From contig JBDRRF010000076.1 in NCBI GenBank assembly GCA_043825875.1, positions 64,001-128,000 on the forward strand: a stretch of 64,000 nucleotides of DNA. Direction: 5' to 3'. The position numbers and the translations under genes were made by a program. This document shows, piece after piece, positions 15,184-59,385 of the stretch; the stretch's first letter is position 1; each line of letters opens with the position of its first letter. Below the pieces are notes generated by a model, which was not told where the DNA came from, searched no databases, and saw only the letters and a list, made by a program, of their open reading frames with translations. Source of the DNA: Pseudomonadota bacterium (GTDB taxonomy: Bacteria; Desulfobacterota; Desulfobacteria; Desulfobacterales; RPRI01).

Positions 15184-16344
15184 ATGAAGATAAAAAAGGG
15201 AATAATGAAATTATTCTATTTTCTAATTAAACCATTGGAGCCACTTTCAAAACGTTTCAGTTTGGTCAAGCTCAAGGCAGGAGAAAATTTCAACCACAGG
15301 AATACTTTAAGTATTTCGAGGATAGCGCTAAAGCTTCACTTCGTGCGAAATTTGAGCCCAACGCAGAGATCGGCCAAAATGGGGCGTTTTGAAACTGGCT
15401 CATTGGTATTTTTTTTTACTATTGTACTTATTATCGGTTTCGCATCGCAAAGCATAACCGCCCAGATAGAATCTTCTGATATGACCCGTTATTTATACAG
15501 CGGCGATGGGCAACTCCGCTTGTATAGCAAAAAAAACGGGAAATCTTTTTCTGGCAGATACCGTTTAGGTTTGGGAACCTATGATGAATCGGCGTTAAAG
15601 AAAATATGCCGGGTTTTCGATGTACCCGATAGTGCCCCAAATACTCACCTCTCTTTGCGGCTTATAGAATTTATCGATTATTTACAAGACCGCTTTGGAC
15701 CTAATCGCCAAATCACCATCACTTCCGGTTATCGAAACCCGGAATACAACACAGGACTTCGCAATAATGGCAAGCTGGCCGCCAAAGCCAGCCTTCACCA
15801 GTATGGAATGGCTGTGGATTTTATAATGGAAGGCGTTAAAGCAAAGTCTATCTGGAATTATGTCAAGACACTGGGTTTTGGCGGAGCAGGCTATTATCAC
15901 GGAAAAACGGTGCATATTGATGTTGGCCCTTCTCGCTCATGGGATGAAACAACATCTGGTGTTGGAACAAATATTTCCGATGACAATAAACTTATCGGGC
16001 TTGTGACGGATTACGATGTTTATCAACCTGGCGCAACGATTACTTTTCGATTCATAAGAATGACGGCCTTTCCAATCGGCGTAATTCCTGAATTCTCGCT
16101 GCTCCGCTTAGATGATAAGACCGGACCAAGAGTTGTTCTTGATTTTAAACCCGATTCAGCTGTACCCGAAAAAGCCTCCTGTATTCAGTTTGGCAATATT
16201 GACCAGATGGCTGGTATTCGATGGAAATTGCCGAATGGAATAATCCCCGGTCGCTATAAAATCAGGGCTGTCTTCTGCGATGATTCATGGAAAGACATGC
16301 CGAACCAAATCGAAACTCCTGAAATTGAGATCAGAAAAATATAG
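15184..16344 (+). CDS. YcbK/DUF882-like peptidase M15 family exported protein with an in-frame MITE insertion
   Basis: ITSGYR.PEYN, S.H..GMAVD, VHIDVG motifs; start 15184 or 15205. Confidence 0.85.
   Translation: MKIKKGIMKLFYFLIKPLEPLSKRFSLVKLKAGENFNHRNTLSISRIALKLHFVRNLSPTQRSAKMGRFETGSLVFFFTIVLIIGFASQSITAQIESSDMTRYLYSGDGQLRLYSKKNGKSFSGRYRLGLGTYDESALKKICRVFDVPDSAPNTHLSLRLIEFIDYLQDRFGPNRQITITSGYRNPEYNTGLRNNGKLAAKASLHQYGMAVDFIMEGVKAKSIWNYVKTLGFGGAGYYHGKTVHIDVGPSRSWDETTSGVGTNISDDNKLIGLVTDYDVYQPGATITFRFIRMTAFPIGVIPEFSLLRLDDKTGPRVVLDFKPDSAVPEKASCIQFGNIDQMAGIRWKLPNGIIPGRYKIRAVFCDDSWKDMPNQIETPEIEIRKI
15238..15401 (+). mobile_element. MITE copy 1 (164 bp, TSD ATTG)
   Basis: TIRs GAGCCACTTTCAAAACG / CGTTTTGAAACTGGCTC; ATTG at 15234-15237 and 15402-15405. 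Confidence 0.88.
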
Positions 16345-19547: not shown

Positions 19548-19734
19548 GAGCATGTTTCAAAACACCCCATTTTGGCCGATCTCTGCGTTGGGCTCAAATT
19601 TCGCACTAAGTGACACGTTGTGAAGCATATGCGCTATCCTTTAGCGCTATCCTCGAAATACTCAATGTATTCCTATGTTTGAAATTATCTCCCGCCTTGA
19701 GCTTGACCAAACTAAAACGTTTTTAAATTGGCTC
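19548..19734 (-). mobile_element. MITE copy 2 (187 bp, TSD ACCT)
   Basis: Same TIRs, inverted; ACCT at 19544-19547 and 19735-19738; two nested internal modules. Confidence 0.85.
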
Positions 19735-19779
19735 ACCTTTTTGTATTAAAGGGCCTAACCAGATCCCTATAAACTCATA

Positions 19780-20624: not shown

Positions 20625-20913
20625 AAGTTTGGCCTGCCTTTCAACTATCGGACGGGCTTTTTCACATATTCATAGATACCAAGATTGATCATATTATTTT
20701 CCAGAAGCGGCCCTGAAGGCAAACAAGTTTTCGTGAATAGACTGTTTGATATTCGCCACATCACTGCCGGTTCTTATACATGCCGAATTTTCCATGACCG
20801 CCCCTTTTATTTCATAGTACACCTACAAACAAATACTACCGGATTCTTTGAAAAATGTTTATTACGTATTGAAAGAGAGTAATGTCAGAATCTACGGTGA
20901 AATCCGTAGGATT

Positions 20914-21834
20914 CTATTGTTGGGATAATTCTAAAATTGATTTGAGCTTTTCCGTTGCTGTAATTTTCTTTTTGGATTCCATTTTTAATATATTTTCAAC
21001 CTTCCACTTGATCGCTGGTAAATTTTCAAGCCCTGAAATTGAAAGCAAACTGAAATTAGGATTTCCCATTTTAACAGACAATAGGAATTTTCTTTCATTC
21101 TTTGAAAGGTTAGATAATATCAGCGATGGCATTTCTTTTCCTATTTTTTCGAGTTCCTGGTAACTGACCTCAATTGATGGCATCCCTTTGAATTCAGTTT
21201 CATATGCCTGTCTTAAATCTTGAAAATTTGGAGAAAGCAACTCTGACATGGGTCGATTATGGCTGGCAAGATATACGACAAACGCTTGGCTTATTTCTTC
21301 ATTCAGGCCTCCTGCCTCATAAAGGAACTTGATATCAAATAAATCTCGAGGGTGCTGGCGATCCAAAGCTGCACATATCTTACCACCATAAAGATCTGCA
21401 AAGGATAGTACCGGAACCTGCATTTCCATTTTGAATATTTCAACTGCTTTCCTGCATAATGTTTTGTGAACCGTCGGATAACAGCTTCCCCTCAATATCA
21501 AATTCGGCTCGATTTTAACCAGGCTGTCTGTGCTGTTAATAATCAGTTTGTATATATAACCCGTATCTTTTATTTTAACTTTTTGAATCTGACATCCGGG
21601 GAATAATCTTTTAACACTATCTGAAATCCTGCTGAGTGAATTTGTAATATCTTTTAAAGTTTCATCTCTTGATTTAATTGGAAGAAATGTCAAATCAATA
21701 TCAACAGATATCCGAGGCATATCCAAATGAAAAAAATTCAAAGCTGTTCCGCCTTTTAGGGCAAAATCTTTTTCCTGCGCAATTATTGGAAGAATAGACA
21801 GCATAAATTTTGCCTGTTCAAAATATTTTTTCAT
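20914..21834 (-). CDS. abiEii: AbiEii/AbiGii nucleotidyltransferase toxin
   Basis: ALKGGTALN...PRISVDIDL; GKICAALDRQHPRDLFD. Confidence 0.9.
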   Translation of the reverse strand: MKKYFEQAKFMLSILPIIAQEKDFALKGGTALNFFHLDMPRISVDIDLTFLPIKSRDETLKDITNSLSRISDSVKRLFPGCQIQKVKIKDTGYIYKLIINSTDSLVKIEPNLILRGSCYPTVHKTLCRKAVEIFKMEMQVPVLSFADLYGGKICAALDRQHPRDLFDIKFLYEAGGLNEEISQAFVVYLASHNRPMSELLSPNFQDLRQAYETEFKGMPSIEVSYQELEKIGKEMPSLILSNLSKNERKFLLSVKMGNPNFSLLSISGLENLPAIKWKVENILKMESKKKITATEKLKSILELSQQ

Positions 21835-21836
21835 TT

Positions 21837-22631
21837 TTATGGGATATCCGTTAAGCTGATACTCTTAATCTCATCAGGGACTGTAATTTGATATTTTTTG
21901 TTTAGAATCCCATTGGCTACAACTTGCCGTTTCCCTTTTCCCAGGTCAATCTTTTCTATATCCAGTTTCTGAAACCAGGGCATGTTATATGTGTCCGCAA
22001 AATAGAGGAATAATCGTTTCGATTTTATTGAACTGCATGTTTCGAGAAGGGTTTGTATGTATTCGCATCGCAATGATAATAGACTTTCCATAAAATGACC
22101 CGCCTCTTCAAAAGAATGGTATATAGGAACCAGAGAACACAATTCAATCATGGCGCGTTCGGGTGCAGACCCTTTTATTTCATAATTGCCCATATTAAAA
22201 TCCATTAATCCAAAATCCGGCCGGGATTGAAAAATATTTAATCTTTTAAAACACAATTCATCTTCCCATGGATGTTTTATGAACCACCTTGGCAGTTGAA
22301 TTTTGTTCGGTGCAAAAAGATATATTTTTGCTGTTCGTCCCAATTGGATATTATGTCCGAATCCAGATAATTCCAAGGCAGTTTTCCCACCAACATGCAC
22401 ACAAATGCTTAATTGATGCTGAACAGCATATAATCCCCCTTGCCAGTCAACAGAATCTCCATATTGGATATATGCGCCGCTTCCTATTTTAGTTACCCAG
22501 GGTGCTTTCTGATAATAATCTAATAGCTGCTGATATCCGCCATGATCTCGAAACCACGTTAATGTACCCACGGTTCCTTTGGGCCAGTTCCGAAGAATTC
22601 GGTTTAATATATTTCTATTTTCACCAGTCAT
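21837..22631 (-). CDS. abiEi: Type IV TA antitoxin AbiEi family
   Basis: GGKTALEL.G, SAPERA..E, C.SIK.KRLFL, LGKGKR; directly upstream of AbiEii. Confidence 0.85.
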   Translation of the reverse strand: MTGENRNILNRILRNWPKGTVGTLTWFRDHGGYQQLLDYYQKAPWVTKIGSGAYIQYGDSVDWQGGLYAVQHQLSICVHVGGKTALELSGFGHNIQLGRTAKIYLFAPNKIQLPRWFIKHPWEDELCFKRLNIFQSRPDFGLMDFNMGNYEIKGSAPERAMIELCSLVPIYHSFEEAGHFMESLLSLRCEYIQTLLETCSSIKSKRLFLYFADTYNMPWFQKLDIEKIDLGKGKRQVVANGILNKKYQITVPDEIKSISLTDIP

Positions 22632-22741
22632 GTTTGTGATTATAAATCAAAATCAAACAAAGTTCAAGCCTGTAGTTTAATATTATTGATATTTAACAAG
22701 TTATACTTGTGGTTTTATGACATATCTATTAGCAATTTTTG

Positions 22742-22791
22742 CAGTAACATGAACATCTGCGGCTTGCCCGCCAGCATGTTCGTTGTTGGGA
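22742..22791 (-). repeat. Short or degenerate attC-like site
   Basis: Minus strand TCCCAAC...GAACATGCTGGCGGGCAAGCCGCAGATGTTC..GTTACTG; 50 bp palindrome. Confidence 0.45.
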
Positions 22792-22935
22792 TATATTTGA
22801 TCAAGGGTCAAACGTAGACGCGACCCCTTTTATTCATCCGGTTAATCAAGGTGGTCGAAAGATTCGATTAAAAAAGCATTAATGTCTTCTTTTCTATAAA
22901 TAAGTTTATAAGTTGCATGCGTCCCTAACACTACC

Positions 22936-23163
22936 CCCTTCGACAATCTGGGTGATATTATTCCTCGCTCAGAAACAATAATACCTGAAAGTAACGAGAA
23001 AAATCCTTTCAGTCTTGAACAAACAATGTTGCAAGCAATAGTAAAAGCCCTGAAAATGGCCAATGGCCGTGTAGGAGGTGAAAATGGCGCAGCAAAGATT
23101 CTGGAAATAAATCCTTCAACACTTCGGACCAAAATGCGTAAGCTCGGCATCCATGCCAAGTGA
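22936..23163 (+). pseudogene. Orphan C-terminal Fis-type HTH of a sigma-54 activator
   Basis: Reads SLEQTMLQAIVKALKMANGRVGGENGAAKILEINPSTLRTKMRKLGI; no upstream AAA+ domain. Confidence 0.7.
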
Positions 23164-23280
23164 ATAGTCCACTCGGTATTTTATAAAACAGACAGAAACT
23201 ACACATTACCCCTTTATTACTTCCACCTACAAAGAAATGCTATAGGATTCTTTAGGAACTGTTTATTACTAAAGGAAAGA

Positions 23281-23340
23281 AAGTAACGGTTGAACTATGC
23301 GGCGCAGCGTTTTAGCGCCCGCACCAGTGATAGGTTATAG
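23281..23340 (-). repeat. attC site
   Basis: Minus strand CTATAAC...GTTACTT, 60 bp, internal palindrome, right after the stop of 23343..24500; clearly homologous to the site at 26134. Confidence 0.75.
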
Positions 23341-23342
23341 CC

Positions 23343-24500
23343 TTACCAATCCATATTTAATGCATTATTAAATTCTTGTTCCATATATTCAATAAAGTCA
23401 TTGAAATCTTGCTCGGATTTCATTGCATTGGAATAGAGACCTTTTGTCTCATCATTAAAAACAACGGGAAGGCCGCTTTTAATATACATCATTCCGTATT
23501 TTGAAATGCTACTACTATCAAGAAAGTTGTCAAAATCATCAAAGACATTGCATATGGATACGAACTCAAACTCATTATGTGTCGAAAATATAAAGTGAGT
23601 TTTTGTTTTACTTTTGGTCAAAGACATTGGTATCGCTCCAATGTGTGGCATGTGGACCTTAAATGAACCACCACCTTTTTGAAAATTACCATGTGCTGCA
23701 ATATTTCTGTAACGCTCCTTTACTTCGCAAATAGCATCATAATGAATCTTTGGAGAGCCACCTTTAGATATATCAAAGAGCGTTTTATATTTTTCACCCC
23801 AGTTCTGACCGACGAACTTAGATAAATCAGATTCAGTTACAAAGACCATAATAAATGGTTTGATTAAAACCAAGATATGCTCAAGCAAACTAAAGTAAGC
23901 GTCAATCATAGCGACTGCATAGTTATAACCTTTATTTTGTTCCTTTAATAAAGCATTATATGCCACCATATGATCTTCAAAGCTATTAAAATCAAAATCC
24001 TCATTTTTAGTGTTTTTTAAGTGCCTTTCTGCCTTCTCTCTGAAATACTCGTAGCGGGATCGAAGATGATAATAGTCATTTGAAATAGTAATTTTGCCGG
24101 AATCTACCTGGCTTTTTATTATTGGTTCTATCAGCTTTTCTGCTGTTGGGATTGCTTTTTTTATTACTCTTAATGCTTCTATAGCTATTTTGGCAGCCTC
24201 AGGCTTATCCGAATAAGTTTTAATCTGAAATCCAAATTTTTTATGTGCTAACATCATGGGTACATTCTTGTATTTAATCGGTATTTCCCAATTAACTTTT
24301 TCCCATTGTCCCCCGAAAGAGTATTTCTTTAAATACACAAATATTATAAAAATAATGTACGGTGGAGGTTTATCTTCAAACTTGATTTCTACAAGGTGGC
24401 CGGCGTTCGGGTCCATCCAGTGTTTATTAGCTTCATCATCAGGAAAGAAATTTTTCAATTTCAAGTCTAATGAATTCATTAACTTCTGGGTAGCTACCAT
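23343..24500 (-). CDS. Cassette-borne hypothetical protein with a HEPN-like RX4H motif
   Basis: 385 aa; YFSLLEHIL helix followed by RNIAAH. Confidence 0.6.
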   Translation of the reverse strand: MVATQKLMNSLDLKLKNFFPDDEANKHWMDPNAGHLVEIKFEDKPPPYIIFIIFVYLKKYSFGGQWEKVNWEIPIKYKNVPMMLAHKKFGFQIKTYSDKPEAAKIAIEALRVIKKAIPTAEKLIEPIIKSQVDSGKITISNDYYHLRSRYEYFREKAERHLKNTKNEDFDFNSFEDHMVAYNALLKEQNKGYNYAVAMIDAYFSLLEHILVLIKPFIMVFVTESDLSKFVGQNWGEKYKTLFDISKGGSPKIHYDAICEVKERYRNIAAHGNFQKGGGSFKVHMPHIGAIPMSLTKSKTKTHFIFSTHNEFEFVSICNVFDDFDNFLDSSSISKYGMMYIKSGLPVVFNDETKGLYSNAMKSEQDFNDFIEYMEQEFNNALNMDW

Positions 24501-24518
24501 GTTCTTATTCTCAATTTG

Positions 24519-24586
24519 CTATAACGCTGAACCGGATTTTGGAGGCGCTCGCGCCGGAAAATTTCCGGTTAATCAATTCGTTAGCT
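24519..24586 (-). repeat. attC site
   Basis: Minus strand AGCTAAC...AACCGGAAATTTT...AAAATCCGGTT..GTTATAG, 68 bp. Confidence 0.78.
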
Positions 24587-24587
24587 T

Positions 24588-25637
24588 TTATTGTCTGTTT
24601 AATAAATTGACCATTATTTTGTCGTATTTTATTGTCCAATCCTTAAAAATATTTAAAGAATTATAATAGTCCATATAGTAATTAATTAGATTACTTGATG
24701 TCCTTTTCTGTGGGGGTAAAGGTTCCTCTTTTACCATATTGATTAGCATTTCTTTGATATTTTTATCTTTTGGTTGATTATCAACCATTTTAATACTGTT
24801 TATCCATTCATCTACTATAAAAGTTGAGAATAAAAAATTTTCTAAGAGATCTTTTAATTCCGGTGATAGTTTAAGGTTGTTGTAAGAGAAAAGGAATTTA
24901 ATATTTTCACCTAAACTATACACTGTATTATAGAAAACTTGGTAAATCCTTTCTGACCCACTTAAATTTAATAAGGAGATATTATGTAAATTGTATATAT
25001 TGTTAAATGATATCGTTAAAAATGATAAATTATTGTTTTGAAAATCTGTTGTTTGTATTTCATCGTAATCAAAGACTGAAGCACAAATGCTGAATTTAAG
25101 TAAAACTATATTCTTGTACAATAAGTTATAAATAAACGTTGTATCTTTTATTAATATGCTTGATTTAATTCCATGCTCGAATTTGCTTGAGATATCAAAG
25201 AAATCGTCGTCTTGAATATCAGGGGTTGTTATGTTTATTAGTTGAGAAATGCGCTTAAATAGTTTTCCTATATCTTCTTTTTTGTTAAGAGTACCAGCCT
25301 GAAATGAATTTAGAGGAACAGATAAATCACCTGGCTGAAGACCTGAATGACATAAAGGAACTACTGGAATTTTATTTACCCAACCAGCACCTGCTTCAAA
25401 ATTGATCCAAGGTCTACCAACTGATAGCGGGCTACAAATGACGACCAAAAGTATACACTCGCTTAAAGAACTTTTAATTACAGATAACCAATCATCTCCC
25501 AATTTCAAGCTTTCTTCATGAGAGGAAACAAATACATCTACACTTTTTAAAAACTTCCTATCTATGAAATCTTTCAAATGATTTGCAATATTACTTTCTT
25601 CATTGATATGTGAAATAAATATAATTGGTTTTTTCAT
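24588..25637 (-). CDS. TIR-domain protein (cassette)
   Basis: IFISH, GDDW...I, SP.SV.RPWINFEAGA with the catalytic-position Glu; unknown C-terminal domain. Confidence 0.85.
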   Translation of the reverse strand: MKKPIIFISHINEESNIANHLKDFIDRKFLKSVDVFVSSHEESLKLGDDWLSVIKSSLSECILLVVICSPLSVGRPWINFEAGAGWVNKIPVVPLCHSGLQPGDLSVPLNSFQAGTLNKKEDIGKLFKRISQLINITTPDIQDDDFFDISSKFEHGIKSSILIKDTTFIYNLLYKNIVLLKFSICASVFDYDEIQTTDFQNNNLSFLTISFNNIYNLHNISLLNLSGSERIYQVFYNTVYSLGENIKFLFSYNNLKLSPELKDLLENFLFSTFIVDEWINSIKMVDNQPKDKNIKEMLINMVKEEPLPPQKRTSSNLINYYMDYYNSLNIFKDWTIKYDKIMVNLLNRQ

Positions 25638-25655
25638 TTATTATACCTAGTAGAA

Positions 25656-25713
25656 TGCTAACGTGGCCTTCAGCCGTGAGCGAAGCGAGTCGGACTGCAA
25701 GGCGAGGTTAGAG
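25656..25713 (-). repeat. attC site
   Basis: Minus strand CTCTAAC..GCCTTGCAG...CTGAAGGC..GTTAGCA, 58 bp, extrahelical base visible in the L-box pair. Confidence 0.8.
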
Positions 25714-25753
25714 TGTTTTATAGCACTAAGCGGAAAAAATTTTAGTAAGGACA

Positions 25754-26125
25754 CTATTTGCATGGAAATGCCTCCCTAAGCGCATCCAAGACTAAACCAC
25801 ATTCATGTTCATGTAGTTTGTTTGGATGGTCGCGTAAGTACTTTACTATTACCCTGGCCTTTTGTTCATGGCTGACTCCTTCTGGAATGCAGAAGAATAT
25901 TTCTTTTTTATCCTTCAGAACTACTGAATAGATGATGTTTAGATCGGCCATGCCTTGTAAATAGCCGACGCAAAATCCGCCACTTAGCGCCCCGGCTATG
26001 TCGACATCCTTTCCTTCTGCGGCATCCAGCATATGTTGGCATCCTCGTAATAGCTTATTTCCATCCGCAAACGATGGTGCCGCTGCAAATAATACTATAG
26101 TTAATGCAATTAAGAGTCTGGACAT
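25754..26125 (-). CDS. Rap1a/Tai-family immunity-like exported protein (cassette)
   Basis: Signal peptide; GN.L...C, C.GY..G, FCIPEGV, YL..HP, AL.EAFPC. True start 26125; the longer ORF reads through the attC. Confidence 0.82.
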   Translation of the reverse strand: MSRLLIALTIVLFAAAPSFADGNKLLRGCQHMLDAAEGKDVDIAGALSGGFCVGYLQGMADLNIIYSVVLKDKKEIFFCIPEGVSHEQKARVIVKYLRDHPNKLHEHECGLVLDALREAFPCK

Positions 26126-26133
26126 ATCTTCAC

Positions 26134-26192
26134 CTCTAATGTTTGAACTGTGCGGCACAGTTATTTGCGTCCGCACAAGTGACTCGTTATGT
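26134..26192 (-). repeat. attC site (R' core reads ATT rather than GTT)
   Basis: Minus strand ACATAAC...ATTAGAG, 59 bp; the upstream gene's TAA stop lies inside the R'' box. Confidence 0.75.
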
Positions 26193-26984
26193 GCCTTTAT
26201 CGCTAATCTTAAGCCCCCATTCAAAAATCTCGACACCCATAACCTCTTTTAGAAAAGCTATAGTTGCATGATACTTAACTGCCTCATGTCCTGAAAAATC
26301 ACCCCTCTTTGCGAAGGTTGCTGCACTATCGACAAGGAATCTAAATCCCCGGATATCATTCGGAAATTCTGGCATATCCCATTCCATATATGGCCGACTA
26401 ATTTCGCCAATTAAATCATCCTCATACCAACTGCATAATCTACGGAAAGGATTTAAGAGCAAAACTTCGTCTTCTCTAATTTTCCATGTATGTTCGCTTT
26501 CTAATACTTTTATAGTATCATTGTATTTTCTTTCATATATTTTCCATGCTGATGGCTGGATTGTAATTCCGATCCACTGCTCTCGTCTTTCCGCTTCGTA
26601 CGCTTCAATAAGTGCTTTTCCGAAATAAAGCTGATGTTTGTTAGAAGAGTCAGCTTTAACCTCAAATTCGCCAAATGTAATTGATCCTCTGGCGGTAATT
26701 CCTTTTGCGAGCAATGCAGACAAAAGCATTGCCCCGATCGCATAAATATCCAAGAATGCCCAATCTCCATAGCCCTTAGGGTCTTGATAAAATAAAAATG
26801 TATCTGAAAAATATATTGTTTTAAATTGCCTATTTAATTCTTCCCATCGTGAAAATGATCGGAGAGCAGAATCTATGACATCGTAAACCTCCTGCGGACT
26901 TTTATTTTCCACGAGTTTACTGAAGCCAAGAAGATCCAAAAATAAAAGATACCTTCCATTGGTTAGACTTATTTCGCACATCAT
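26187..26984 (-). CDS. Class III nucleotidyl-cyclase-like protein (cassette)
   Basis: LFLDLLGFS, FSDT, RGSITFGE, GKALIEAYEAE; ATG 26984 after AGGAAG. Confidence 0.6.
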   Translation of the reverse strand: MMCEISLTNGRYLLFLDLLGFSKLVENKSPQEVYDVIDSALRSFSRWEELNRQFKTIYFSDTFLFYQDPKGYGDWAFLDIYAIGAMLLSALLAKGITARGSITFGEFEVKADSSNKHQLYFGKALIEAYEAERREQWIGITIQPSAWKIYERKYNDTIKVLESEHTWKIREDEVLLLNPFRRLCSWYEDDLIGEISRPYMEWDMPEFPNDIRGFRFLVDSAATFAKRGDFSGHEAVKYHATIAFLKEVMGVEIFEWGLKISDKGT

Positions 26985-27087
26985 TCTTCCTATTTGCATT
27001 CGTAATTGTATGCATGTCACTCTTGATCACTGCATTAACATTATCGTTGATAATTTCTTTTTTTGTAGTTTTACTGACGGTACCTAC

Positions 27088-27541
27088 TTATTTTGTAAAT
27101 TCATTGTTACGCAACATCGCTTCAACTGCTTCCGATGGTGTCTTCAGGTCAATATTTACCTTATGCTTATTCTCAATTTGATATTTTATAGTTTGCATAT
27201 GAGATTTAGCTCTCCGAAGGGCCAAGAAAGGATTTTTGACGTAGTACCATTTTTCGCCTGGTAGCGCAGGAGGAATGCCCAACTCTGCCATACCTAAAGC
27301 ATAAAAACTATACTTCAACATATCAGCCATAATTTGATAGAGGCATTCCCCCACCAACGCGTCTCCGCAAATCCTCCGTTTGTTCTTGCACCTTTTCTTG
27401 CTGGTCTTTTGTCAGTCTGTCATATGTGTATTTCGCGAAATATGCGTTCAGTACTACGGCATAATTATTTGACTTACGGTATACACGATAAACAATATAA
27501 AGCAGAATAACCAGTGCAATCACTATCCCCAAATAATTCAT
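27088..27541 (-). pseudogene. Probable frameshifted membrane-anchored hypothetical gene
   Basis: Two overlapping same-strand ORFs (27323..27541 with an N-terminal TM, and 27088..27357) that look like one gene. Confidence 0.45.
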
Positions 27542-28008
27542 TTTTAAATTCCTATCATAATAATTAATATACGTAATATGACTTTATTTGATACCGGGAA
27601 GAAATCTGTATGCAAAGTAGTTAATTTGTAAAGGAATTTAGAGCTTTTGTCAAATTTTTAGTGTGTTATTCTGTAATTGCTATTTATTATCTGTTAACAC
27701 GTATCACGTATAACACAGGAGTTTGTACTGTTGATTTCATCTGTGTTGATTACAGAATGAAACCTTGGGAAACAAAGACGTTTATCAGATTACTTCTTTC
27801 AGGAAGCTATACAATAAAAAAACAGTTGTAAGATTTTTCACGATCAGCAACCCGCCGGAAACGCAGCCTTCACAAGCGAAGTCTTTGTGAAAGGCGTGGT
27901 TGTAAAATATTTTAAAGGGCAGAGCTGTGAACTGTGTGGGCCTGACACCCATGTTGCCCGTCAATGCGACCCCCATTATTTCGGTCACGGCTCACGCCTT
28001 CATTAAAT

Positions 28009-28251
28009 TCACCGCATTTTAATAAACTTAATCCGAAGATAAACGGCCAACACAAACCATGCGACAGCAATTACATTCCATACCTTATTGTCGGCTAACA
28101 CCTCAAAGATCCTTGGCAGAAACACACATGAGAGTATAGATATCCAAAAAAATATTCTTACTACAACCTCATCTTCGGGCCTAGGATCAAAAATACGATA
28201 TAAGATACTTCTTTGTTCTTGATCCGATTTTGATGAATTCTTGTTTTCCAT
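28009..28251 (-). CDS. Small two-TM hypothetical protein
   Basis: 80 aa, GAGG RBS, two hydrophobic segments. Confidence 0.5.
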   Translation of the reverse strand: MENKNSSKSDQEQRSILYRIFDPRPEDEVVVRIFFWISILSCVFLPRIFEVLADNKVWNVIAVAWFVLAVYLRIKFIKMR

Positions 28252-28584
28252 ATCCTCTCGTTTCAGATGGAGAAAGGGGCCTCTAAATTGCTATAAATCG
28301 TCTTTGGGTCAGGTCTGCTCTTGGCTCTTGTATCGTATATGAAATATACTCAAGAGTAAAAAAGGGATCACAATTTCAGACCCGCACGCCTTTTGCATTT
28401 CTATTGAGCCAGAGTACCTTCTCCCTTGTTTTTGTACGTGATGGGCCATACCATATGTCCCAATTGCTTTCCTGGAAAATTGACAACTGCTAACGTTTTC
28501 GCCTCTACCCTCTTCCGTATTCTCTTCAATATCTCTCGGATTAGGATGAAATACAGGTCAAATGTAGACCCCATTACTGACCTT

Positions 28585-28652
28585 TCATGACGGCCTGTTT
28601 CACTGGGAGAGGCCGACTATCCACGATCCAGTGCGAGCTATTGCTGTTGAGG
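28585..28652 (-). repeat. Degenerate attC-like site
   Basis: Minus strand CCTCAAC...CACTGG...CCAGTG...GTCATGA downstream of 28701..29444. Confidence 0.45.
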
Positions 28653-28700
28653 GAATTTTACTACTATTAACTGTTACGGCAGCAAACCATCAAAATCTAT

Positions 28701-29444
28701 TCAATTTAACAAGCTAAATGAATTTAGGATATATAGTAATTCTTCGCGAGTTTGTGTTGTTAAACCTTCTTCAGTTGGTAATTGTGAAGCGGTAACAACA
28801 AAGGCCAATCCATTTCTAAGTATAATTTTCGCAAATTGAAATACCCTTCCGATTGGGCTAATTTGTGAGTACACAATTAATCCCGAACTTGTATTCGCAT
28901 CTATCTTAGATAAATAAACCTCCCAACCGAGCACCTTCATTTTTTGTGTTGATAAATGCATATACTGGTCAGTAGTCATAGCTGCGCAATCTTCAACTAT
29001 AATATTTACATTTGGAACAAAATCTCCAACTTTTTCAGTTTTTGTTATCAAAATCGGAACATTTACCGATGATGGGATGCCATGCTGGTTTAAGGTTGCT
29101 TGATTTAAACTATTATTAGCTACCCATTTACCATTTGGCCAACTTATTTGAAATTTGTATTGCGCACTTGTATATTTGCAGATAATCCCTTCGTCTATAT
29201 CTCTTGCAGCTTTTTTTTCTCTAACAGATATTTCAGTATCTCCAATGGGTGTTTTTGTCGTTTTTGAAGAGAATTTAAATTTACCAACCCCAATTTCTGC
29301 ATCTGTTAAACGCGCGCTTAAATCATCGAATAAAATAATGATTGGTTTGCGAAAAATAATAAAAATAATCAAAAGAATGATTGGCCATGATGTGATCACT
29401 TCGATGAACCTAAGCAAAGCATCAACAAAGTCTTTAATTGCCAT
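28701..29444 (-). CDS. Membrane-anchored hypothetical protein, PsbP/DcrB-like C-terminus
   Basis: SWP TM helix; FQISWP..W, PNVNI.VE, ILNSF. Confidence 0.55.
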   Translation of the reverse strand: MAIKDFVDALLRFIEVITSWPIILLIIFIIFRKPIIILFDDLSARLTDAEIGVGKFKFSSKTTKTPIGDTEISVREKKAARDIDEGIICKYTSAQYKFQISWPNGKWVANNSLNQATLNQHGIPSSVNVPILITKTEKVGDFVPNVNIIVEDCAAMTTDQYMHLSTQKMKVLGWEVYLSKIDANTSSGLIVYSQISPIGRVFQFAKIILRNGLAFVVTASQLPTEEGLTTQTREELLYILNSFSLLN

Positions 29445-29517
29445 TTTTCACCTACTTTTTTCTATTACCCGTAGAAAAAACGGTTGGTTGGAATAAATAA
29501 AAAACAAAAAACGATGC

Positions 29518-29606
29518 CCTTAACGTTTGGGATATGCGGCAAACGGTGTAAATATAATAATATATTGAATAAATTTCCGTCCATACCGGAAATCCCGAGG
29601 CTATCA
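29518..29606 (-). repeat. Degenerate attC-like site
   Basis: Plus strand CCTTAACGTTTGGGATATGCGG...CCGGAAATCCCGAGGCTATCA; its start resembles the 23281 and 26134 sites. Confidence 0.45.
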
Positions 29607-29798
29607 TTACCATAACAAAGATTATATTGGCAACATATAATTGATATTATAGCAATTATCTTACTTGTTTAACACCTTCATGTTTACAGTTACACATCAC
29701 AGATCGCGGCATTCCCAATCTGCTTACAGCGACTATTTGTGCCATACGCATTTCGTTAATTACCCAGCGTTTGTCTATCTCTGTTCCGGGTATGGGAA

Positions 29799-30500
29799 TT
29801 AGTCTGGCTGCGATATAATAGGATCGGGCAAAATGATTTGGTCATTATCGATAGTAATATTTATGAGCGATTGTTTTTTTATGCTTCTTAGGCGGTTCAA
29901 ATCCACATTAAAGTATTTTGCAATATCTTCGTCAAAAATTATTGCTTCCGATTTGTTTCTTCTTTCTCCTCTTCTAAGAAACCACAAATAATTGTAAACT
30001 GTCCATCCAAGCATAATAAACAAAACCACCAGCAAGGCAGACCCGCTATTTGTTAATGCGTTTATAATTTCCTCAAAACCCCCGCCTATCAGATTTTCGG
30101 TGTAGTATAAATGAAATCCTAAAACCCACAGGCAAAGAGTTAATAAAGGCATTAACCAATATGCCCACAATGCCCAGAGGGCAAAAGTAAATGAGCCTTC
30201 GAACAGATAACGTACAGGAGATTTTAATTCCGGCTTATCAATGATTTTAGGTTGTGTACCCAAAAAATAAAATACAAAGACCAGCTTGTCATTTATCCCG
30301 CCTGTGAAATCAATCACGGGAAACAGCATCCGGATATCGAAAATTTGCATAATATATGAAAAAAGCGGCTTTGCCAGGCAAGCAAAAAGACCCCAGCAGA
30401 CAAGGGTTAATAACCCTTCTGAAAATTTTTGCAAACCGGATTTAAGCTCCGGCTTATCAATTATTTTAATGTATGCAGGCCTCTGTCCGGACTTTGCCAT
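29799..30500 (-). CDS. pgaD: PgaD with a duplicated N-terminal module
   Basis: Follows pgaC; T...W..W.Y TM, W..YN...F...RR motif. Confidence 0.8.
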   Translation of the reverse strand: MAKSGQRPAYIKIIDKPELKSGLQKFSEGLLTLVCWGLFACLAKPLFSYIMQIFDIRMLFPVIDFTGGINDKLVFVFYFLGTQPKIIDKPELKSPVRYLFEGSFTFALWALWAYWLMPLLTLCLWVLGFHLYYTENLIGGGFEEIINALTNSGSALLVVLFIMLGWTVYNYLWFLRRGERRNKSEAIIFDEDIAKYFNVDLNRLRSIKKQSLINITIDNDQIILPDPIISQPD

Positions 30501-31726
30501 GTTACAGTTACCCTCCCGGTCTTTCTGATAAATATGTTAAAAACACCCACAATTGAGGCAACTGCGCTTATGACCCAGTATGCAAACGGGTACCAAACTG
30601 CCCAAAAATAGTACTTAAGAGAAGATTTCTCCTCATAACGGCTGTCAATGGAAATACTGACTATAAACTGAATCAGACATACCAAAGCAAGGATTGAACC
30701 TGTTTTTTTCGGTAATAACGGAAATGCGGTATTTACGATATCTGTGCCAAAATCAAAAAACCAAAACAATACATAAGAGACCAGCCAGAAAACAATATAT
30801 ATGGCCAAACTGTATGCCCATAAAGTTCCCACAACATACTCCACATAAACAGGCCATAATCTGCGCTGTCTTTTATCTCGCCAAATATTGCTGTGTTTTT
30901 TCAATACTTCAATGCCGCCCTGGGCCCAGCGAACTCTTTGCATGAAAAGTCCTTTGATGGTCTCGGGAACAAGCACCCAGCACAATGCCCTTGGTTCATA
31001 ACGAACATCCCAGAAATTCTTCTGGAGCTTCCATGTCATGTCTATATCTTCTGTCACAGTGTCGGCGCTAAAAAGACCACACTGGAAAAGAGCACTTTTT
31101 CTATAGGCCGCAATTACTCCTGAGACAGAGAGCATTTTACCCAAAATCCTCTGGGCTCTTTTTATAAGACCGATAATACTTGAATATTCTCCTACCTGAA
31201 TTTTACCAAGAAGAGTTGTCCTGTTTAACACTCTGGGGTTTCCTGTTACAGCCCCCAGTCTTGGATGAGATACGAAATGCCAGGCCATGTATTTTAAGGC
31301 ATCTTTACCTAGTATGCTGTCGGCATCAATAACTAATATGAAATGCCCTTTAGTAAGAAGCAATGCAGCGTTTGTGGCCTTTGCCTTTCCTCCATTAGGG
31401 CTTATATTAATTACCTTAAGCCAATCAGAATACTTTTTTACAAGATTTCCAAGAATACTGGCGGTGTTATCGGTGCTTCCGTCATTTGCCACTATTACTT
31501 CATAATTGGGATATTCAAGGTCTTTTAAATTCTCTATGGTTTGTTCGATGTTAGCCTCTTCATTATGCGCCGGAACAATAATAGTGAAGGGGGGATATGC
31601 ATCCAGCAAAGGTGCTGCCTTTCTTTCCCAGCGCATATAAAAAATCAACCCGCCAACTATCCATACAATGCTCATATAAAGTGGAAAAAGAAAAACAAAA
31701 TAACCAATAATTTCCCAAACAATCAT
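30461..31726 (-). CDS. pgaC: Poly-beta-1,6-GlcNAc synthase
   Basis: PAHNEE, DGSTD, DAD, TEDID, QRVRWAQGG, W.SPDRG; ATGA overlap with the pgaB stop. Confidence 0.93.
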   Translation of the reverse strand: MIVWEIIGYFVFLFPLYMSIVWIVGGLIFYMRWERKAAPLLDAYPPFTIIVPAHNEEANIEQTIENLKDLEYPNYEVIVANDGSTDNTASILGNLVKKYSDWLKVINISPNGGKAKATNAALLLTKGHFILVIDADSILGKDALKYMAWHFVSHPRLGAVTGNPRVLNRTTLLGKIQVGEYSSIIGLIKRAQRILGKMLSVSGVIAAYRKSALFQCGLFSADTVTEDIDMTWKLQKNFWDVRYEPRALCWVLVPETIKGLFMQRVRWAQGGIEVLKKHSNIWRDKRQRRLWPVYVEYVVGTLWAYSLAIYIVFWLVSYVLFWFFDFGTDIVNTAFPLLPKKTGSILALVCLIQFIVSISIDSRYEEKSSLKYYFWAVWYPFAYWVISAVASIVGVFNIFIRKTGRVTVTWQSPDRGLHTLK

Positions 31727-33675
31727 TTTAGCAGCCACTCCTCAGGCAAAGTCCGTGTTGATATGATGGAGGACACAGAGTCCATATTCGGTTGGTTTTG
31801 GAAGACATTATCCGGGTAATAGGCCAGATGTTTGCCTCCCGATGACACCAAAAACCGCAGTTCTTTTTTTAAGATTGCATCACTTACAGGCCGATCATTT
31901 TTCCAGTCATAGCTTTGAACCTTAAAAATTACTTTATCTATAGCATGATGCTTTTCTACTCTGCTTACTATTTCGGCAAACCAGGTCTTAATTGCCCCCA
32001 AACTCTTCAAACCTTCCATTTGGGGATAAGCCATGATGACCGTATAATCATATTGTTTTAAATAGTTTTCAAAATCCTGACAAAACCATTCTTTTGCATC
32101 AGGATTAAGCAAGACAATGCTATAAATATTGCGGGCCGTCTCGGCAAGCGGTCTGTATTCTTTTACTGTTGCCATGAGTTGCCTGATAAAAGCATCTATT
32201 GTTTCTGTTTTAAGCGTAGTCCATTGCTCACGGACCTGATCGTCTCCTATATTATCCGGGTCCAATTCTGTTCCGTAATGTTTCTTAAATGCTTTTAGAG
32301 CGGATGGATGGAAATCTTCAAAATCAGTCAGGTAGGCATCATCCTGGAACAGGATGCCGTCAAAGCGCACATTGGCTGCCAAATCCCTGTAAATAGATTT
32401 TACAAATTCAAGGTTTTTCTCCTCAAAGGGGGAAAGCCTGCGATACCATGAAGAGGTAGTTTTGATTTGATTATCTTTATACTCTTTTACTTTCAGGCTT
32501 TCGTTTAAAACCTTATCCGGCAGCTCATAACTTAAAACAGGCATCCAGACAAATACTTTCATGCCTCTGATCCGTATTCTATTTACTGCATGGCTTAAAA
32601 AATCCATCTCAACGGCCAGGGTATTGTTTGAAAAATATACTGAACTAATATTGCCTGTTGCTTGCCGGTCACAAAAAGCCTGAAGGACCACTGTATTCAC
32701 ACCTGATGCCATCAGCCTTTCTATTACAAGCCCCAGATTATGATCACTTTCCTCAAACGATTCAGGATTTACGATCATATCAAGATCGATCTGTACACAA
32801 CGGGTATCATCCTTATACTTGAAATCTTCTTTCATTTTAGAAGCAAATTCATTGTATTTCATCAATTTCGTAATAATGTTACGATTGACAGCGGTCAATT
32901 TTTTAATGGAGGCCTTATCCGGTTTGAGAGTCAAAATTATTTTAAAGCCAAGTTTTTGTGCTTCATCTATCCCAAGACCATTGTGTTCGCCATAGGGCCA
33001 GGTAAGAATCCACGGGCTGGTTCCGGTAACTTCTTTGATTTTATGAATACTTTTTTTAAGGTCAGTTTTTATTCTATTTCGAAACTCTTTATCGCTTTCA
33101 TATCTTTTCTCTTCTTTAAAGAAGGCAAAAGTGCTCATGGCAGGCTCTGTGTTTCCTGCCGGGTTGTATACTATCGCCTTGTGAGAGTCATTCGAATGTG
33201 AGGCAATATATACCCGGCCTGAATCAGCCATTTCCTTAATCTGTTTCCATGACATCAGATCTTTGTTTCCTACATATTCCGGCTTTTCTTCTATCCATGA
33301 ACAGACCACCGAAAGTACTGCGGAATAACCGTATTTTTTCAATACAGGATATACAAACTGATAAAACGAAAGATATGCATCATCAAAAGTCAGCAAAACC
33401 GCTTTTTCAGGAAGGGGTTTTATCCCTTTTTTTGCAGCCATAATGTCATCAGGATTGATAACCGTATAACCGTTTTCCTTGAGATATTCCAAATGATTTA
33501 CAAAAACATGCCGTGCCACGTCCATAGACACCGATTCTTTTGCAGGGATATCGTGATAACAGAGAACGAGAAATTCTTCCGATGCAAAACAAGGCCATAC
33601 AAACAGAAATATAATGGTTATATAAGCTGTTATTCTAGAAATTTTTTCTAAGACCAAAGAAGGCGCTAAAAACAT
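31723..33675 (-). CDS. pgaB: PNAG N-deacetylase/hydrolase
   Basis: LCYHD, LTFDD, SHS..SH, WPYGE, V.LQAF, RLSPF, YYPDN; start approximate. Confidence 0.9.
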   Translation of the reverse strand: MFLAPSLVLEKISRITAYITIIFLFVWPCFASEEFLVLCYHDIPAKESVSMDVARHVFVNHLEYLKENGYTVINPDDIMAAKKGIKPLPEKAVLLTFDDAYLSFYQFVYPVLKKYGYSAVLSVVCSWIEEKPEYVGNKDLMSWKQIKEMADSGRVYIASHSNDSHKAIVYNPAGNTEPAMSTFAFFKEEKRYESDKEFRNRIKTDLKKSIHKIKEVTGTSPWILTWPYGEHNGLGIDEAQKLGFKIILTLKPDKASIKKLTAVNRNIITKLMKYNEFASKMKEDFKYKDDTRCVQIDLDMIVNPESFEESDHNLGLVIERLMASGVNTVVLQAFCDRQATGNISSVYFSNNTLAVEMDFLSHAVNRIRIRGMKVFVWMPVLSYELPDKVLNESLKVKEYKDNQIKTTSSWYRRLSPFEEKNLEFVKSIYRDLAANVRFDGILFQDDAYLTDFEDFHPSALKAFKKHYGTELDPDNIGDDQVREQWTTLKTETIDAFIRQLMATVKEYRPLAETARNIYSIVLLNPDAKEWFCQDFENYLKQYDYTVIMAYPQMEGLKSLGAIKTWFAEIVSRVEKHHAIDKVIFKVQSYDWKNDRPVSDAILKKELRFLVSSGGKHLAYYPDNVFQNQPNMDSVSSIISTRTLPEEWLLK

Positions 33676-36484
33676 GTGTCGAATCTCCATCATATATTTT
33701 TCTGTCCCATCCTGCATTCCAGAGGAATGCGAAGGTCTTCGAAATATCAACCGTTTGTTCATAGGTAATGCCGTAAATTGCATAAGACTTAAAACCGCTC
33801 TGAGCAAAAAGTCCTTCACGCGTATAGATAGACGATCTGACCTTTTTATCGTAGCGGGCATAATGCATATAATGAAAAGTTTGCGTCAGCATAAAAGTAT
33901 AACTTTCTTGTGGACTGAAATAATCCACGTCCTGCTTGCTGTTTGCGGAATAGTTTAATTCTCCCCCCATCCTGATTTTGAAATCCGGCAAATTAAATAC
34001 ATTTTGATCATAATAAAGAGTTACGCCCGAGCCTCTGTTCCCATCGCTTATTCGATTTTGGCTTAAAGAAAAGCCATAATATCTTAAATCGCTTTCGTTA
34101 TAACGTAAATCAAAGGATATATTTTTCCCTTCAACGCCGATAGCACGGGCTCTTATGGGAATTTCAAGAAGAAATGAGTTGAATCCGCCCGTAATGTCAA
34201 GATGGTCTGTAGGCAACCAGTTTACTGTGGTATAATAACCGAAATCTTTGGCACCTTCATAATCAAACGTAACGGCCTGCCTCCAGATTATCTCCGGAAA
34301 TACTATCCATTCACAACCAAGTCCTGCCCGGTTCCAATCATATTTCAAACCATCATCAGAGGTCTTCTGCCAGACGATTTCCTGAAAAATCTTGAAAGTG
34401 GTTGTAACCGGTTCAGTCATACTTGATCGAAGAAAAAATTCCTCGGCTCCGGGTGATTCCTGAATAAATTTTCCTTCAATCCAGAACTCATTCATATCTT
34501 CAACATGAAAGGTTTCAACAAGATCTATTACATGTTTATCCTTCGGAAATTTCTGATAGAGTTTTTTAGCAAGTTTTCTGGCATCTTCCTTATAATTTAA
34601 CTGATTCAGGGTTCTCGCAATACCGATCTGGATGCTACTGTTAAAGGTTGAATTATCAATATTTTGGGCAATATTAAATTCTTCCAGCGCCCGTCTTGGC
34701 CAACCCCTCCATAAGTATGTGTATGCAAGTGCATTTCGGTTCCCCGAATTCATGCCCGCCTTGTCCATAAATGATGTAAAATGCTCCTGGGCTTTTTTTA
34801 GTTTATCCTGAAAAGCCCAATGCCATCCACGTGCCTGGAATGCCTCAAGCCTTAACCATGGATCAAGCTGTTTTTCCTTATCAAGGTATAACTGTATCTC
34901 TTCCCATGTCTGTTCCGCTTCCTTCCATTTACGCAATTCCTGATAAGTATAAAAAAGGCCCATCAGCGTTGAAAATGGAGATGCTGATCCTTTTTTGATT
35001 GTAAGCTGATAGAAGTACAGTGCTTTTTCAGGTTCCTCCAAATAAAGATATGCATCTGCAACGGCCTGAGTAACATAGGAAGGTATTGATGAAATATCAT
35101 GATTGATAAGGTGAAACTGATCTATGATTTCCTGCATCCGTTCTTTGCTTCGCAGCGCAGTAATGTAGTCATATCGCGCACGAATGTCAGCAGGGTTTTC
35201 ATCCAGTATTTTTTTTAGGATTTTTTCCGCTTTCTCCGGTTGGTCCCACCTTAATCTGTTTCTGGCACGGTCTTCTTCAAGGGAGTGTATAAATGATTGT
35301 TCCGAATTCTTGTTTAATATTGCCTCATCATAGGCAATACTCGATGATCCCAAATCCGATAGTGCTCTTAACTTAAGTTTCTGTGCAACAGCATTTTTCG
35401 GCTTTAAGAGCAAAATCGCTTCATATACATCTATTGCTGCCAGAAAATCTCGTTGCTTTTCATAGACAAAGGCTTTTGCAAAAAGAGCATCCACGGTAAA
35501 ACAGTCCTTAATCAAGACTTTTTCCAACGCTTGATGGGCAGCTAAAAACTCATTTTTCATGGTAAGAGGATAGGCAGACCCAATTGGGGCAAGGCAGGAA
35601 TCCGGCCATTTGCTAACAATAAAGCGATAAATCCGTAGCGAATTATCGTAATTTCCCGCTTTAAAATAACTCCATGCCAGTTCAAGAAGAATACCAGGAG
35701 AAAGCGTTTCCATGTCGAATTGAATAAGCTTAGGTAGGTGATTTATCTGCCCGTTATCCACATCAAGGATAAGATTGAAAGGAAAATTATCCCTGTATTG
35801 ATTCTGTAAGATATGGATGTCATCTGAAGATAGAAAGGAAAAAACCGCTTTGCGCTTATCATATACTTCTTTTATCAATAACTCATTTGTTTCAGCCTGT
35901 AAATACTTCAGATATCCTGTATATGCTTTTCTATAGTTTTGTTCTTTTTGAAACAGATCAGCCCGAAGAAAACTTATTATATTTGGAGAGACGGTATTTT
36001 TGCTTTGCGCTTCATTTATCAAACTATGGGCTTTTGCATAATTTCCTGTTTGAAAAAGGCAATAAAGAACGCCTTTAAATGCTTCGCTGTCGCCAGGGTT
36101 TTCTGAAAGGACCCATTCATAAAGCTGCTGTGCCTCCTGGTATCGGCCCAGGTCGAAAAATGCACGGGCTACGGCTTTGTTCACATAAGGCAGCTTTTGA
36201 AGATCTTTTTTATGTTTTAGGAAAAAATCGACTGCTTCCCGTTTGTTTCCGGTCCAAACCAGACAAACCGCATAGTCCGCTTTAATGAAAATGTGGTTGG
36301 GATCTTTCTTAATAGCATTTATCAGGAATGGAAGAGCTTCGGCGTAATTTTCCTGCTTTATAAAGCTTACTGCCCGATCATAATCAATTTGGATTTCAGA
36401 AATATTTCCTGAATAGGCAATGTTATGAACAAACGAAGCAATCGTTAGACAAAGCAAAAACAGGATATGCCTTCTTTTATACAC
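33635..36484 (-). CDS. pgaA: PNAG export porin (TPR + beta-barrel)
   Basis: Signal peptide, TPRs, WRGWPRRA, YFSP, terminal Phe; first gene of the pga operon. Confidence 0.85.
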   Translation of the reverse strand: MYKRRHILFLLCLTIASFVHNIAYSGNISEIQIDYDRAVSFIKQENYAEALPFLINAIKKDPNHIFIKADYAVCLVWTGNKREAVDFFLKHKKDLQKLPYVNKAVARAFFDLGRYQEAQQLYEWVLSENPGDSEAFKGVLYCLFQTGNYAKAHSLINEAQSKNTVSPNIISFLRADLFQKEQNYRKAYTGYLKYLQAETNELLIKEVYDKRKAVFSFLSSDDIHILQNQYRDNFPFNLILDVDNGQINHLPKLIQFDMETLSPGILLELAWSYFKAGNYDNSLRIYRFIVSKWPDSCLAPIGSAYPLTMKNEFLAAHQALEKVLIKDCFTVDALFAKAFVYEKQRDFLAAIDVYEAILLLKPKNAVAQKLKLRALSDLGSSSIAYDEAILNKNSEQSFIHSLEEDRARNRLRWDQPEKAEKILKKILDENPADIRARYDYITALRSKERMQEIIDQFHLINHDISSIPSYVTQAVADAYLYLEEPEKALYFYQLTIKKGSASPFSTLMGLFYTYQELRKWKEAEQTWEEIQLYLDKEKQLDPWLRLEAFQARGWHWAFQDKLKKAQEHFTSFMDKAGMNSGNRNALAYTYLWRGWPRRALEEFNIAQNIDNSTFNSSIQIGIARTLNQLNYKEDARKLAKKLYQKFPKDKHVIDLVETFHVEDMNEFWIEGKFIQESPGAEEFFLRSSMTEPVTTTFKIFQEIVWQKTSDDGLKYDWNRAGLGCEWIVFPEIIWRQAVTFDYEGAKDFGYYTTVNWLPTDHLDITGGFNSFLLEIPIRARAIGVEGKNISFDLRYNESDLRYYGFSLSQNRISDGNRGSGVTLYYDQNVFNLPDFKIRMGGELNYSANSKQDVDYFSPQESYTFMLTQTFHYMHYARYDKKVRSSIYTREGLFAQSGFKSYAIYGITYEQTVDISKTFAFLWNAGWDRKIYDGDSTHVFSAFFGLRKNF

Positions 36485-58642: not shown

Positions 58643-58650
58643 ATTTAATA

Positions 58651-58923
58651 ATGTGGCGCATACGAGAACATCACAATTTAAATAAGATTATTGCAAAATT
58701 ACCGTTGCAGGTCGTGAAAAAATACGAACTTTGGAAAGATATTGTTTTTCGACATGGGCCAGATATATTACGTGAATTTCCTGGTTTTCATGACGAAAAA
58801 TTAAAAGGAGAGTTTGAAGGACAACGATCATCACGGCTTAATATTCAATATCGTGTTATTTATTCTATCGAAAAAGAGATAGTATCAGTTTATACCATTG
58901 ATATAACACCACATAAATATTAG
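58651..58923 (+). CDS. higB: RelE/HigB-like mRNA interferase toxin
   Basis: HDEKLKG...G.RSSRLN.QYRVIY; toxin-first order. Confidence 0.8.
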   Translation: MWRIREHHNLNKIIAKLPLQVVKKYELWKDIVFRHGPDILREFPGFHDEKLKGEFEGQRSSRLNIQYRVIYSIEKEIVSVYTIDITPHKY

Positions 58924-58935
58924 GGGGTTAAAATA

Positions 58936-59327: not shown

Positions 59328-59385
59328 CCACAACATGAAAATCAACAGGACCCCAAAAGCCGGGCCGGTGCTTAAACCGTTGAAC
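59328..59385 (+). repeat. attC-like site
   Basis: CCACAAC...CAACAGGACCC...GGGCCGGTG...GTTGAAC, 58 bp, imperfect. Confidence 0.4.

Follow-up and report, generated by a model that had tools for sequence, protein, structure and literature searches.

An integron cassette array without integrase in a Desulfobacterales genome, probably built on a satellite attI platform loaded in trans

How does an integron cassette array come to stand where there is no integrase to build it? The question is raised by a locus in a 64,000-nt stretch of DNA (the window) on contig C76 of a Desulfobacterales genome (G000, the source genome; 118 contigs). The locus is a genuine integron cassette array and, by definition, an attC cluster that lacks integron-integrases (CALIN): it comprises two or more attC sites, and no integron integrase gene (intI) lies nearby. 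We propose that the array sits on a satellite platform that has its own attI and is filled in trans, the window copy being partly decayed, rather than being a plain leftover of a complete integron; we put the probability of this reading at about 0.7. We favor it over a stranded array because the genome encodes four intact integrases (IntI) and the attI of the array lies within an element present in ten copies. Coordinates below are window positions unless a genome and contig are given (G008, G011 and G013 are congeners, G031 belongs to another family), and the features are collected in Table 1.

The array extends from about 20.8 to 29.7 kb, the abiE pair included, and comprises nine attC-like sites and a conserved attI. 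Two sites on one strand gave strong matches to an attC model and more are recognized by fold and reciprocity; from the coordinates, the widest interval between sites is ~1.8 kb (20925 to 22742), within the 4 kb allowed for a CALIN. No TIGR02249 match above the cut-off lies in the window or anywhere else on C76, and a tblastn search of C76 for integrase matched only a phage-type recombinase. As in a complete integron, an attI heads the cassettes, judged by sequence and with ATT as its R box in the window copy, and the cassettes have reciprocal cores, as from circular intermediates; what differs is that no intI adjoins the array. With nine attC-like sites and a conserved attI, the locus also falls outside the definition of a single attC lacking integrase (SALIN) at an attG, an insertion site that is neither attI nor attC. 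The original prediction, made from the sequence alone, had named a CALIN with cassettes integrated by IntI, seven attC sites and no intI in the window. Reciprocity, model matches and the CALIN definition uphold this, and all seven sites are present. Two further sites (27856–27905 and 20877–20925) had been overlooked, and the limits given, 22742–29606, were too narrow, leaving out the abiE cassette. Two elements described below, X and Y, had likewise been overlooked.

Cassettes that integrate as circles leave a 5ʹ core complementary to the R″ box at their own 3ʹ end. The four such pairs that had been claimed read as described. Over the five bases past the triplet, the cassette of the HEPN-like gene matches at 5/5 and those of the TIR, Rap1a and 247-aa genes at 4/5 each, giving 17/20 in total (P = 5e-5, the reference being random pairings among 31 of the 34 attC sites elsewhere in the genome). 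All seven units flanked by two attC-like sites together match at 21/35 (P = 0.005). Two of them are not reciprocal: the abiE unit matches at 0/5, and the unit with Y and the Fis-HTH fragment at 1/5. The cyclase-like cassette has a degenerate reciprocal core at its start codon that matches at 5/5, at a site picked after the fact. Compared with each other, the two cores of a single site agree at only 0–3 of 5 bases, which is expected because the sites are chimeric. The R″ boxes on either side of the abiE pair (20919–20926 and 22785–22792) are identical over eight bases, and no upstream core matches either of them.

The attC model was a covariance model built on a rough alignment of 17 sites outside the window, not the model of IntegronFinder. 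A rule-based scan of the genome, which gave 53 matches versus 35 in a shuffle and was too loose for testing, served only to choose clear sites for the model. Genome-wide, the covariance model gave 37 matches among the 150 scored of 535 candidates, including arrays on C25, C102, C109 and C75. In the window it matched the sites at 26134 and 23281 strongly, and reported none of those at 25656, 22742, 28585 and 29518 at E ≤ 5; an Rfam search of the window gave no match. A lack of model matches, or bottom strands that do not fold with bulged bases, had been named as grounds for rejecting the array. The bottom strand at 25656 does fold in this way, but the fold at 28585 is not attC-like. The site at 24519 is probably impaired. 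An isolated attC-like site on the strand opposite to that of the array (59328–59385; 26.5 bits) possibly marks a further cassette locus; it is flanked by a small toxin-antitoxin-like pair (58650–59211), which we take to be HigBA-like, and a 370-aa gene.

Could the locus instead be a fixed defense island or operon, unrelated to integrons, in which palindromes occur by chance? Its cargo does resemble that of defense islands (AbiE, TIR, HEPN-like), and the rule-based scan was poor at telling real sequence from shuffled. However, such an island accounts neither for the reciprocal cores and the model matches nor for homologues that have attC sites elsewhere. Moreover, the four large genes of the array have no match among 30 relatives, and after pgaD, where the original prediction had suggested a check of synteny, G011 carries different genes. 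The fixed-operon reading is refuted in practice, and we consider any explanation without an integron extremely unlikely.

If IntI built the array, which IntI was it? Genes above the TIGR02249 cut-off lie on C51, C68, C107 and C79 of G000; all four frames are open and keep what we take to be the catalytic motifs. The search for intI across the genome that had been suggested therefore has two outcomes: none on the contig of the array, and four intact genes elsewhere. The four enzymes are of three types, those of C51 and C68 being 88% identical and the others 44–50%. Two have long N-terminal extensions (437 and 506 aa), and the 437-aa enzyme is that of C107.

Comparison of the region with its own genome brought out two repeated non-coding pieces, X and Y. 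X runs from the crossover of the attC at 27856 to the attI. An nhmmer profile found ten X cores in G000 and ten more in 15 regions fetched around matches in G008, G013 and G011; X is present in 3 of 16 congeners. Copy counts use this longer profile, the 17-base core alone giving, at two mismatches, a weak 14 matches versus 4–5 in shuffles. The triplet that ends X is GTT in 14 of the 20 copies, ATT in two, GAT in two and another sequence in two. Conservation stops after it: the next base agrees in 14/20 copies, later bases in 7–10/20, and the sequence beyond is unrelated. The same core lies ~200 bases upstream of the divergent gene for the 437-aa IntI on C107, in 4 of 19 congener intI loci (all long-form), and beside an IntI of G031 that is 75.5% identical to the C107 enzyme. 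In all, six genomes have the sequence of the end of X where the attI of a long-form intI is placed. Because its core is shared with sites upstream of long-form intI, we identify the end of X, from position and sequence, as the attI of the C107 integrase. None of the ten X cores lies on any of the four intI contigs. X probably also carries a cassette promoter: a TTGACA (27648–27653) stands 17 bp from a TACAAA (27625–27630), and TTGACA or a near match occurs in nine of the ten source-genome copies.

The conserved end of X bears on a second explanation, in which the cassettes entered ordinary secondary sites (attG) and X, a multicopy promoter or some other repeat, has a good target at its end by chance. 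IntI has been described as using very many genomic sites (10.1101/2022.09.11.507474). Other repeats are abundant in this genome, and the upstream cassette at 28701–29444 splits a gene fragment, as would be expected of an attG-type insertion. However, the end of X is not an arbitrary sequence, being that of the attI position in those six genomes, and we consider secondary insertion very unlikely as an explanation of the array as a whole.

Comparison with congeners indicates that X is a site of exchange. At one orthologous copy (G000:C100 and G008:C83) the flanks are 95.6% identical up to the GTT; different genes follow, and the sequences rejoin at an R′ box. In G008:C48, X is followed by a cassette that has 97.8% identity to one at an unrelated locus on G000:C103, and the identity begins a few bases before the GTT. 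A 3.6-kb unit on C46 is missing in G011 and G002, where 90 and 12 bases separate its flanks, and a unit on C109 is missing in G008; gain and loss are indistinguishable at these two loci, and neither target-site duplications nor GTT are evident at their outer ends.

These exchanges have to be set against a plain decayed CALIN, in which the X copies are stumps of complete integrons that lost intI, or of split arrays, and loading was in cis. The window copy has many marks of decay, the array is flanked by gene fragments, X is possibly a paralogue, since diverged, of the native intI–attI spacer, and loss of intI and rearrangement are among the routes to CALINs listed in PMC4889954. On the other hand, no intI remnant was found either on C76 or in X, which gave no tblastn match when tried as such a remnant. 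Decay in cis would need ten separate losses, each leaving the same 110–300 bp. The promoter half of X and Y adjoin none of the 19 congener intI loci, and an orthologous copy without intI has swapped cassettes between congeners whose flanks are still 95.6% identical. We therefore regard a plain decayed CALIN as rather unlikely.

In a satellite platform loaded in trans, X would provide the attI and likely a promoter. IntI made elsewhere, most likely the 437-aa C107 enzyme, would act on the attI of X, and circular cassettes would enter one by one between the G and the TT of the triplet. Each insertion would shift the original 3ʹ half of the site farther downstream, and the genome would carry about ten such platforms. 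Element Y may be this 3ʹ half. It gave ten nhmmer matches in the source genome. Either Y or the 14 bases that open it comes after nine of the ten X copies, 0.4–4.3 kb away and in the same orientation, and the interval holds one to five unrelated small genes. The Y motif matches 32 times genome-wide, corresponding to an expectation of ~0.02 in 5 kb. Most simply, X and Y represent two halves of one site, which insertions would have forced apart.

Several observations weigh against this account. An empty site, with X joined directly to Y, was found neither in the source genome or the fetched loci nor, as an exact pattern, in 185,579 genomes, a set that may omit near genomes. All that X has in common with the native C107 attI region is its last 17–20 bases and a single short motif upstream. 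A promoter scan did not flag the pair of boxes proposed in X. The assembly is in 118 contigs, and one X copy lies only 1.2 kb from a contig end. The R box of the window copy is ATT. The only sequencing run that contains this DNA, possibly its source, has the array on one unbranched contig at flat depth and gives no sign of current shuffling, in contigs that drop rare variants. Lastly, cassettes also lie upstream of X (27856–29550), which a platform alone leaves unexplained. They are situated between two pieces of a radical-SAM-like gene (a name we assume from a CxxxCxxC motif) and may have arrived by secondary-site insertion or rearrangement.

Three other candidates were considered and set aside. 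A near match to an empty site on C108 is a Y-like start alone, with no X before it. A joint in reads between 23288 and 27562, which resembled an empty site, has 24 letters on its short side and undetermined letters between, and is best explained by a locus on C28 (22/24 and 37/40 matches, 519 bp apart). As a cassette without an open reading frame and with its own attC, Y has boxes that pair unconvincingly.

The original prediction had described the locus as a decaying cassette reservoir. It does bear marks of decay: the attI and two attC sites have ATT, one site has an extra-long spacer, two sites are damaged, and the first cassette is in two frames. Because the R box of its attI is ATT, the window copy is probably now closed to new insertions and eroding; its two canonical attC sites could still be excisable. 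With four intact IntI in the genome and an attI in the array itself, however, “decaying” fits the window copy and not the system.

X may not be the only orphan attI. Some nine other, weaker orphans are similar to the native C107 region in their upstream half. The attI core with this half, and without intI within 1.5 kb, occurs in other genomes of the taxonomic order, at L124 and L140 (G031), L130, L137 and L141 (G009), L128 (G210), L132 (G001) and L134 (G010). Several attI families may have orphan copies, because the upstream regions of the C51/C68 and C79 intI genes also have dispersed copies free of intI, at G000:C79:105384–105566, C76:38948–39043, C35:79954–80055, C47:10583–10716, C83:69265–69510 and C91:34913–35095.

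How might such platforms multiply? X and Y occur in two orders. In one, Y is followed contiguously by X, from attC crossover to attI (G008:C89 and, in part, G000:C110); in the other, found in the window and most copies, X is followed by cassettes and then Y. The permutation point is near a short motif, AGGTGAAG, which is present at both ends of one G008 copy. Because both orders exist and the permutation point is near one motif, we tentatively propose a circular intermediate: X and Y might constitute a non-coding mobile module of ~0.4–0.55 kb, with promoter and attI, that spreads via a circle and seeds integrons without integrase. We consider this possible rather than likely. Simple tandem nesting followed by erosion could also give rise to both orders.

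Table 1. Positions of the sites, genes and elements of the array within the window
Feature	Position	Strand	Details
Second copy of Y	20819–20883	−	nhmmer E 5.6e-17; blastn 79% to first copy
attC	20877–20925	−	49 bp; perfect L boxes, ATT for GTT; 16.4 bits, E 0.42; fold z −3.6
AbiEii toxin, type IV toxin-antitoxin	20914–21834	−	PF08843 E 1e-33; PADLOC AbiEii E 2e-107
AbiEi antitoxin	21837–22631	−	PF11459, PF17194; PADLOC
attC, near-canonical	22742–22791	−	One spacer a base long; fold z −2.7; not reciprocal with neighbors; not reported by model
Fis-HTH fragment, 3ʹ end of sigma-54-activator-like gene	22937–23158	+	93% to G000:C89:23292–23513; HTH_8 E 1e-4; not a cassette
Tail element Y	23220–23287	−	From crossover of last attC
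attC, canonical	23281–23340	−	60 bp; 41.6 bits, E 1e-6
Cassette gene, 385 aa, HEPN-like	23343–24500	−	R-N-x-x-x-H motif
attC	24519–24586	−	Five extra bases between R″ and L″; 12.1 bits, E 3.6
Cassette gene, TIR-domain protein, 349 aa	24588–25637	−	TIR_2 E 9.5e-8; PADLOC TIR-TM E 4e-13; GC 0.28
attC, canonical	25656–25713	−	58 bp; by eye; bottom-strand fold has bulged bases, z −2.0; not reported by model
Cassette gene, Rap1a immunity family	25754–26125	−	PF18602 E 3e-18
attC	26134–26192	−	Perfect L boxes, ATT for GTT; 43.2 bits, E 5e-7
Cassette gene, nucleotide-cyclase-like	26187–26984	−	Atlas features 0.96–0.97 to unnamed and “guanylate cyclase” clusters
First cassette	27088–27541	−	Two overlapping frames, 72 and 89 aa
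attI core	27559–27576	−	R box ATT for GTT; one mismatch to core beside long-form intI genes
Element X	27562–27861	−	Non-coding, promoter-like; from crossover of attC 27856 to attI
attC, short	27856–27905	−	50 bp; fold z −2.0; closes 80-aa gene
Cassette gene, 80 aa	28009–28251	−	Function unassigned
Radical-SAM-like 3ʹ-end fragment, second piece	28437–28544	−	81% to G000:C15:44021–44132
attC, degenerate	28585–28652	−	GTC; long spacer (3 extra bases); fold not attC-like, z −0.4
Cassette gene, 247 aa	28701–29444	−	No family in Pfam, PADLOC or NCBIfam; reciprocal 4/5
attC, right arm only	29518–29550	−	89-bp stretch fails to fold as single attC
Radical-SAM-like fragment, first piece	29678–29811	−	83% to G000:C15:43831–43964

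The genes between 23343 and 29444 are all on the minus strand, in agreement with the co-orientation noted originally, but a frame at 22927–23163 is on the opposite strand. The spacers had been noted as very short, but those at 27541–28009 and 28251–28701 are long. The 385-aa protein has no match in Pfam, PADLOC or NCBIfam; its R-N-x-x-x-H motif, which fits the R-x4-6-H pattern of HEPN nucleases, may indicate a HEPN domain, and its structural likeness to RnlA clusters is weak (TM 0.28–0.30; ≤0.30 to any named cluster). Homologues occur in two of 300 genomes of the class (G113 and G063), with an attC match after each. For the TIR protein, 80 homologue loci were found and 27 scored; the attC model matched six of these and none of the six full-length homologues, one of which (L172) has a 10-base reciprocal core by eye. 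No IntI lies within 3 kb of any of the 80 loci. The cyclase-like gene is unmatched in 300 genomes of the phylum. The 80-aa gene and its attC at 27856 are both present at another locus in G008, at 94.5% identity that ends at the crossover. The two frames of the first cassette are probably one broken gene, and no attC is recognizable behind it; the sequence at 27030–27055, possibly a second attI or collapsed attC, shows just a 25-bp palindrome. The stop codon of AbiEii falls within the attC at 20877–20925.

Other features accompany the array. Short REP-like palindromes with GGTC/GACCCC arms are found at its seams (22805–22830, 27960–27980 and 28555–28575). A 120-bp non-coding repeat at 29555–29672 recurs at C79:253018, C76:101219 and C31:64969 and in four congeners, and one of its copies terminates in an attI-like run with GTT. 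An intact pgaABCD-like polysaccharide operon (29799–36484) is kept in G011 at 82%. Copies of a 140–190 bp palindromic repeat, of which the genus has dozens, are at 15235–15405 and 19548–19735. Just left of the window, a phage-type integrase with a nuclease-like neighbor (G000:C76:60392–62454) is possibly the edge of a prophage.

How does the array compare with known systems? A CALIN, like the array described here, contains two or more attC sites with cassettes and lacks an intI nearby, but its definition ignores attI, and the tool that finds CALINs matches attI exactly for classes 1–3 only (PMC4889954). CALINs are commoner than complete integrons, and their origin is considered open because most have no intI remnant nearby (PMC9668308; 10.1101/2022.09.11.507474; PMC4889954). 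Half of them are on the same replicon as an intI and may still be functionally linked to it (PMC4889954), and mobilization of their cassettes in trans has been stated in print (PMC9668308; 10.1101/2025.06.18.660453; PMC4889954). Isolated cassettes have been explained by attG insertion (10.1101/2022.09.11.507474). As with a SALIN at an attG, the cassettes here are far from intI and an integrase would act in trans; in contrast, attG sites are many unrelated sequences (10.1101/2022.09.11.507474), whereas the target here is one conserved, repeated attI. Diverse attI sites have been described, every one linked to intI (PMC3146285).

The array in the window thus differs from a typical CALIN in having an attI with a promoter-like half, ten copies and a shared tail. 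It would work like the attI and promoter (Pc) half of an integron. X has the attI core of the complete C107 integron, insertion between the G and the TT, and cassettes reading away from the site. Unlike that integron, the X platforms lack intI, differ in their upstream half, occur in many copies among housekeeping genes, and carry short arrays of one to five genes. We found no description of multi-copy orphan attI platforms in the literature searched, which included few subscription papers and no supplements. To our knowledge, nobody checks CALINs for attI, because the attI of most integrons is unknown.

What is the significance of such platforms? A bare CALIN would in itself be ordinary. Here, an attI is kept, at ten places in the genome, and it is possible to name the cognate integrase. 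Therefore, loading in trans is directly testable, with one enzyme and the natural site variants GTT, GAT and ATT. If IntI itself moves the module of X and Y, then integrons would propagate their own landing pads, which would constitute a further route to CALINs. The cargo of the array (AbiE, TIR, HEPN-like and cyclase-like) consists of candidate phage-defense genes. We propose that one genome can in this way run many short, separately promoted arrays, which would avoid the silent distal cassettes of a long array.

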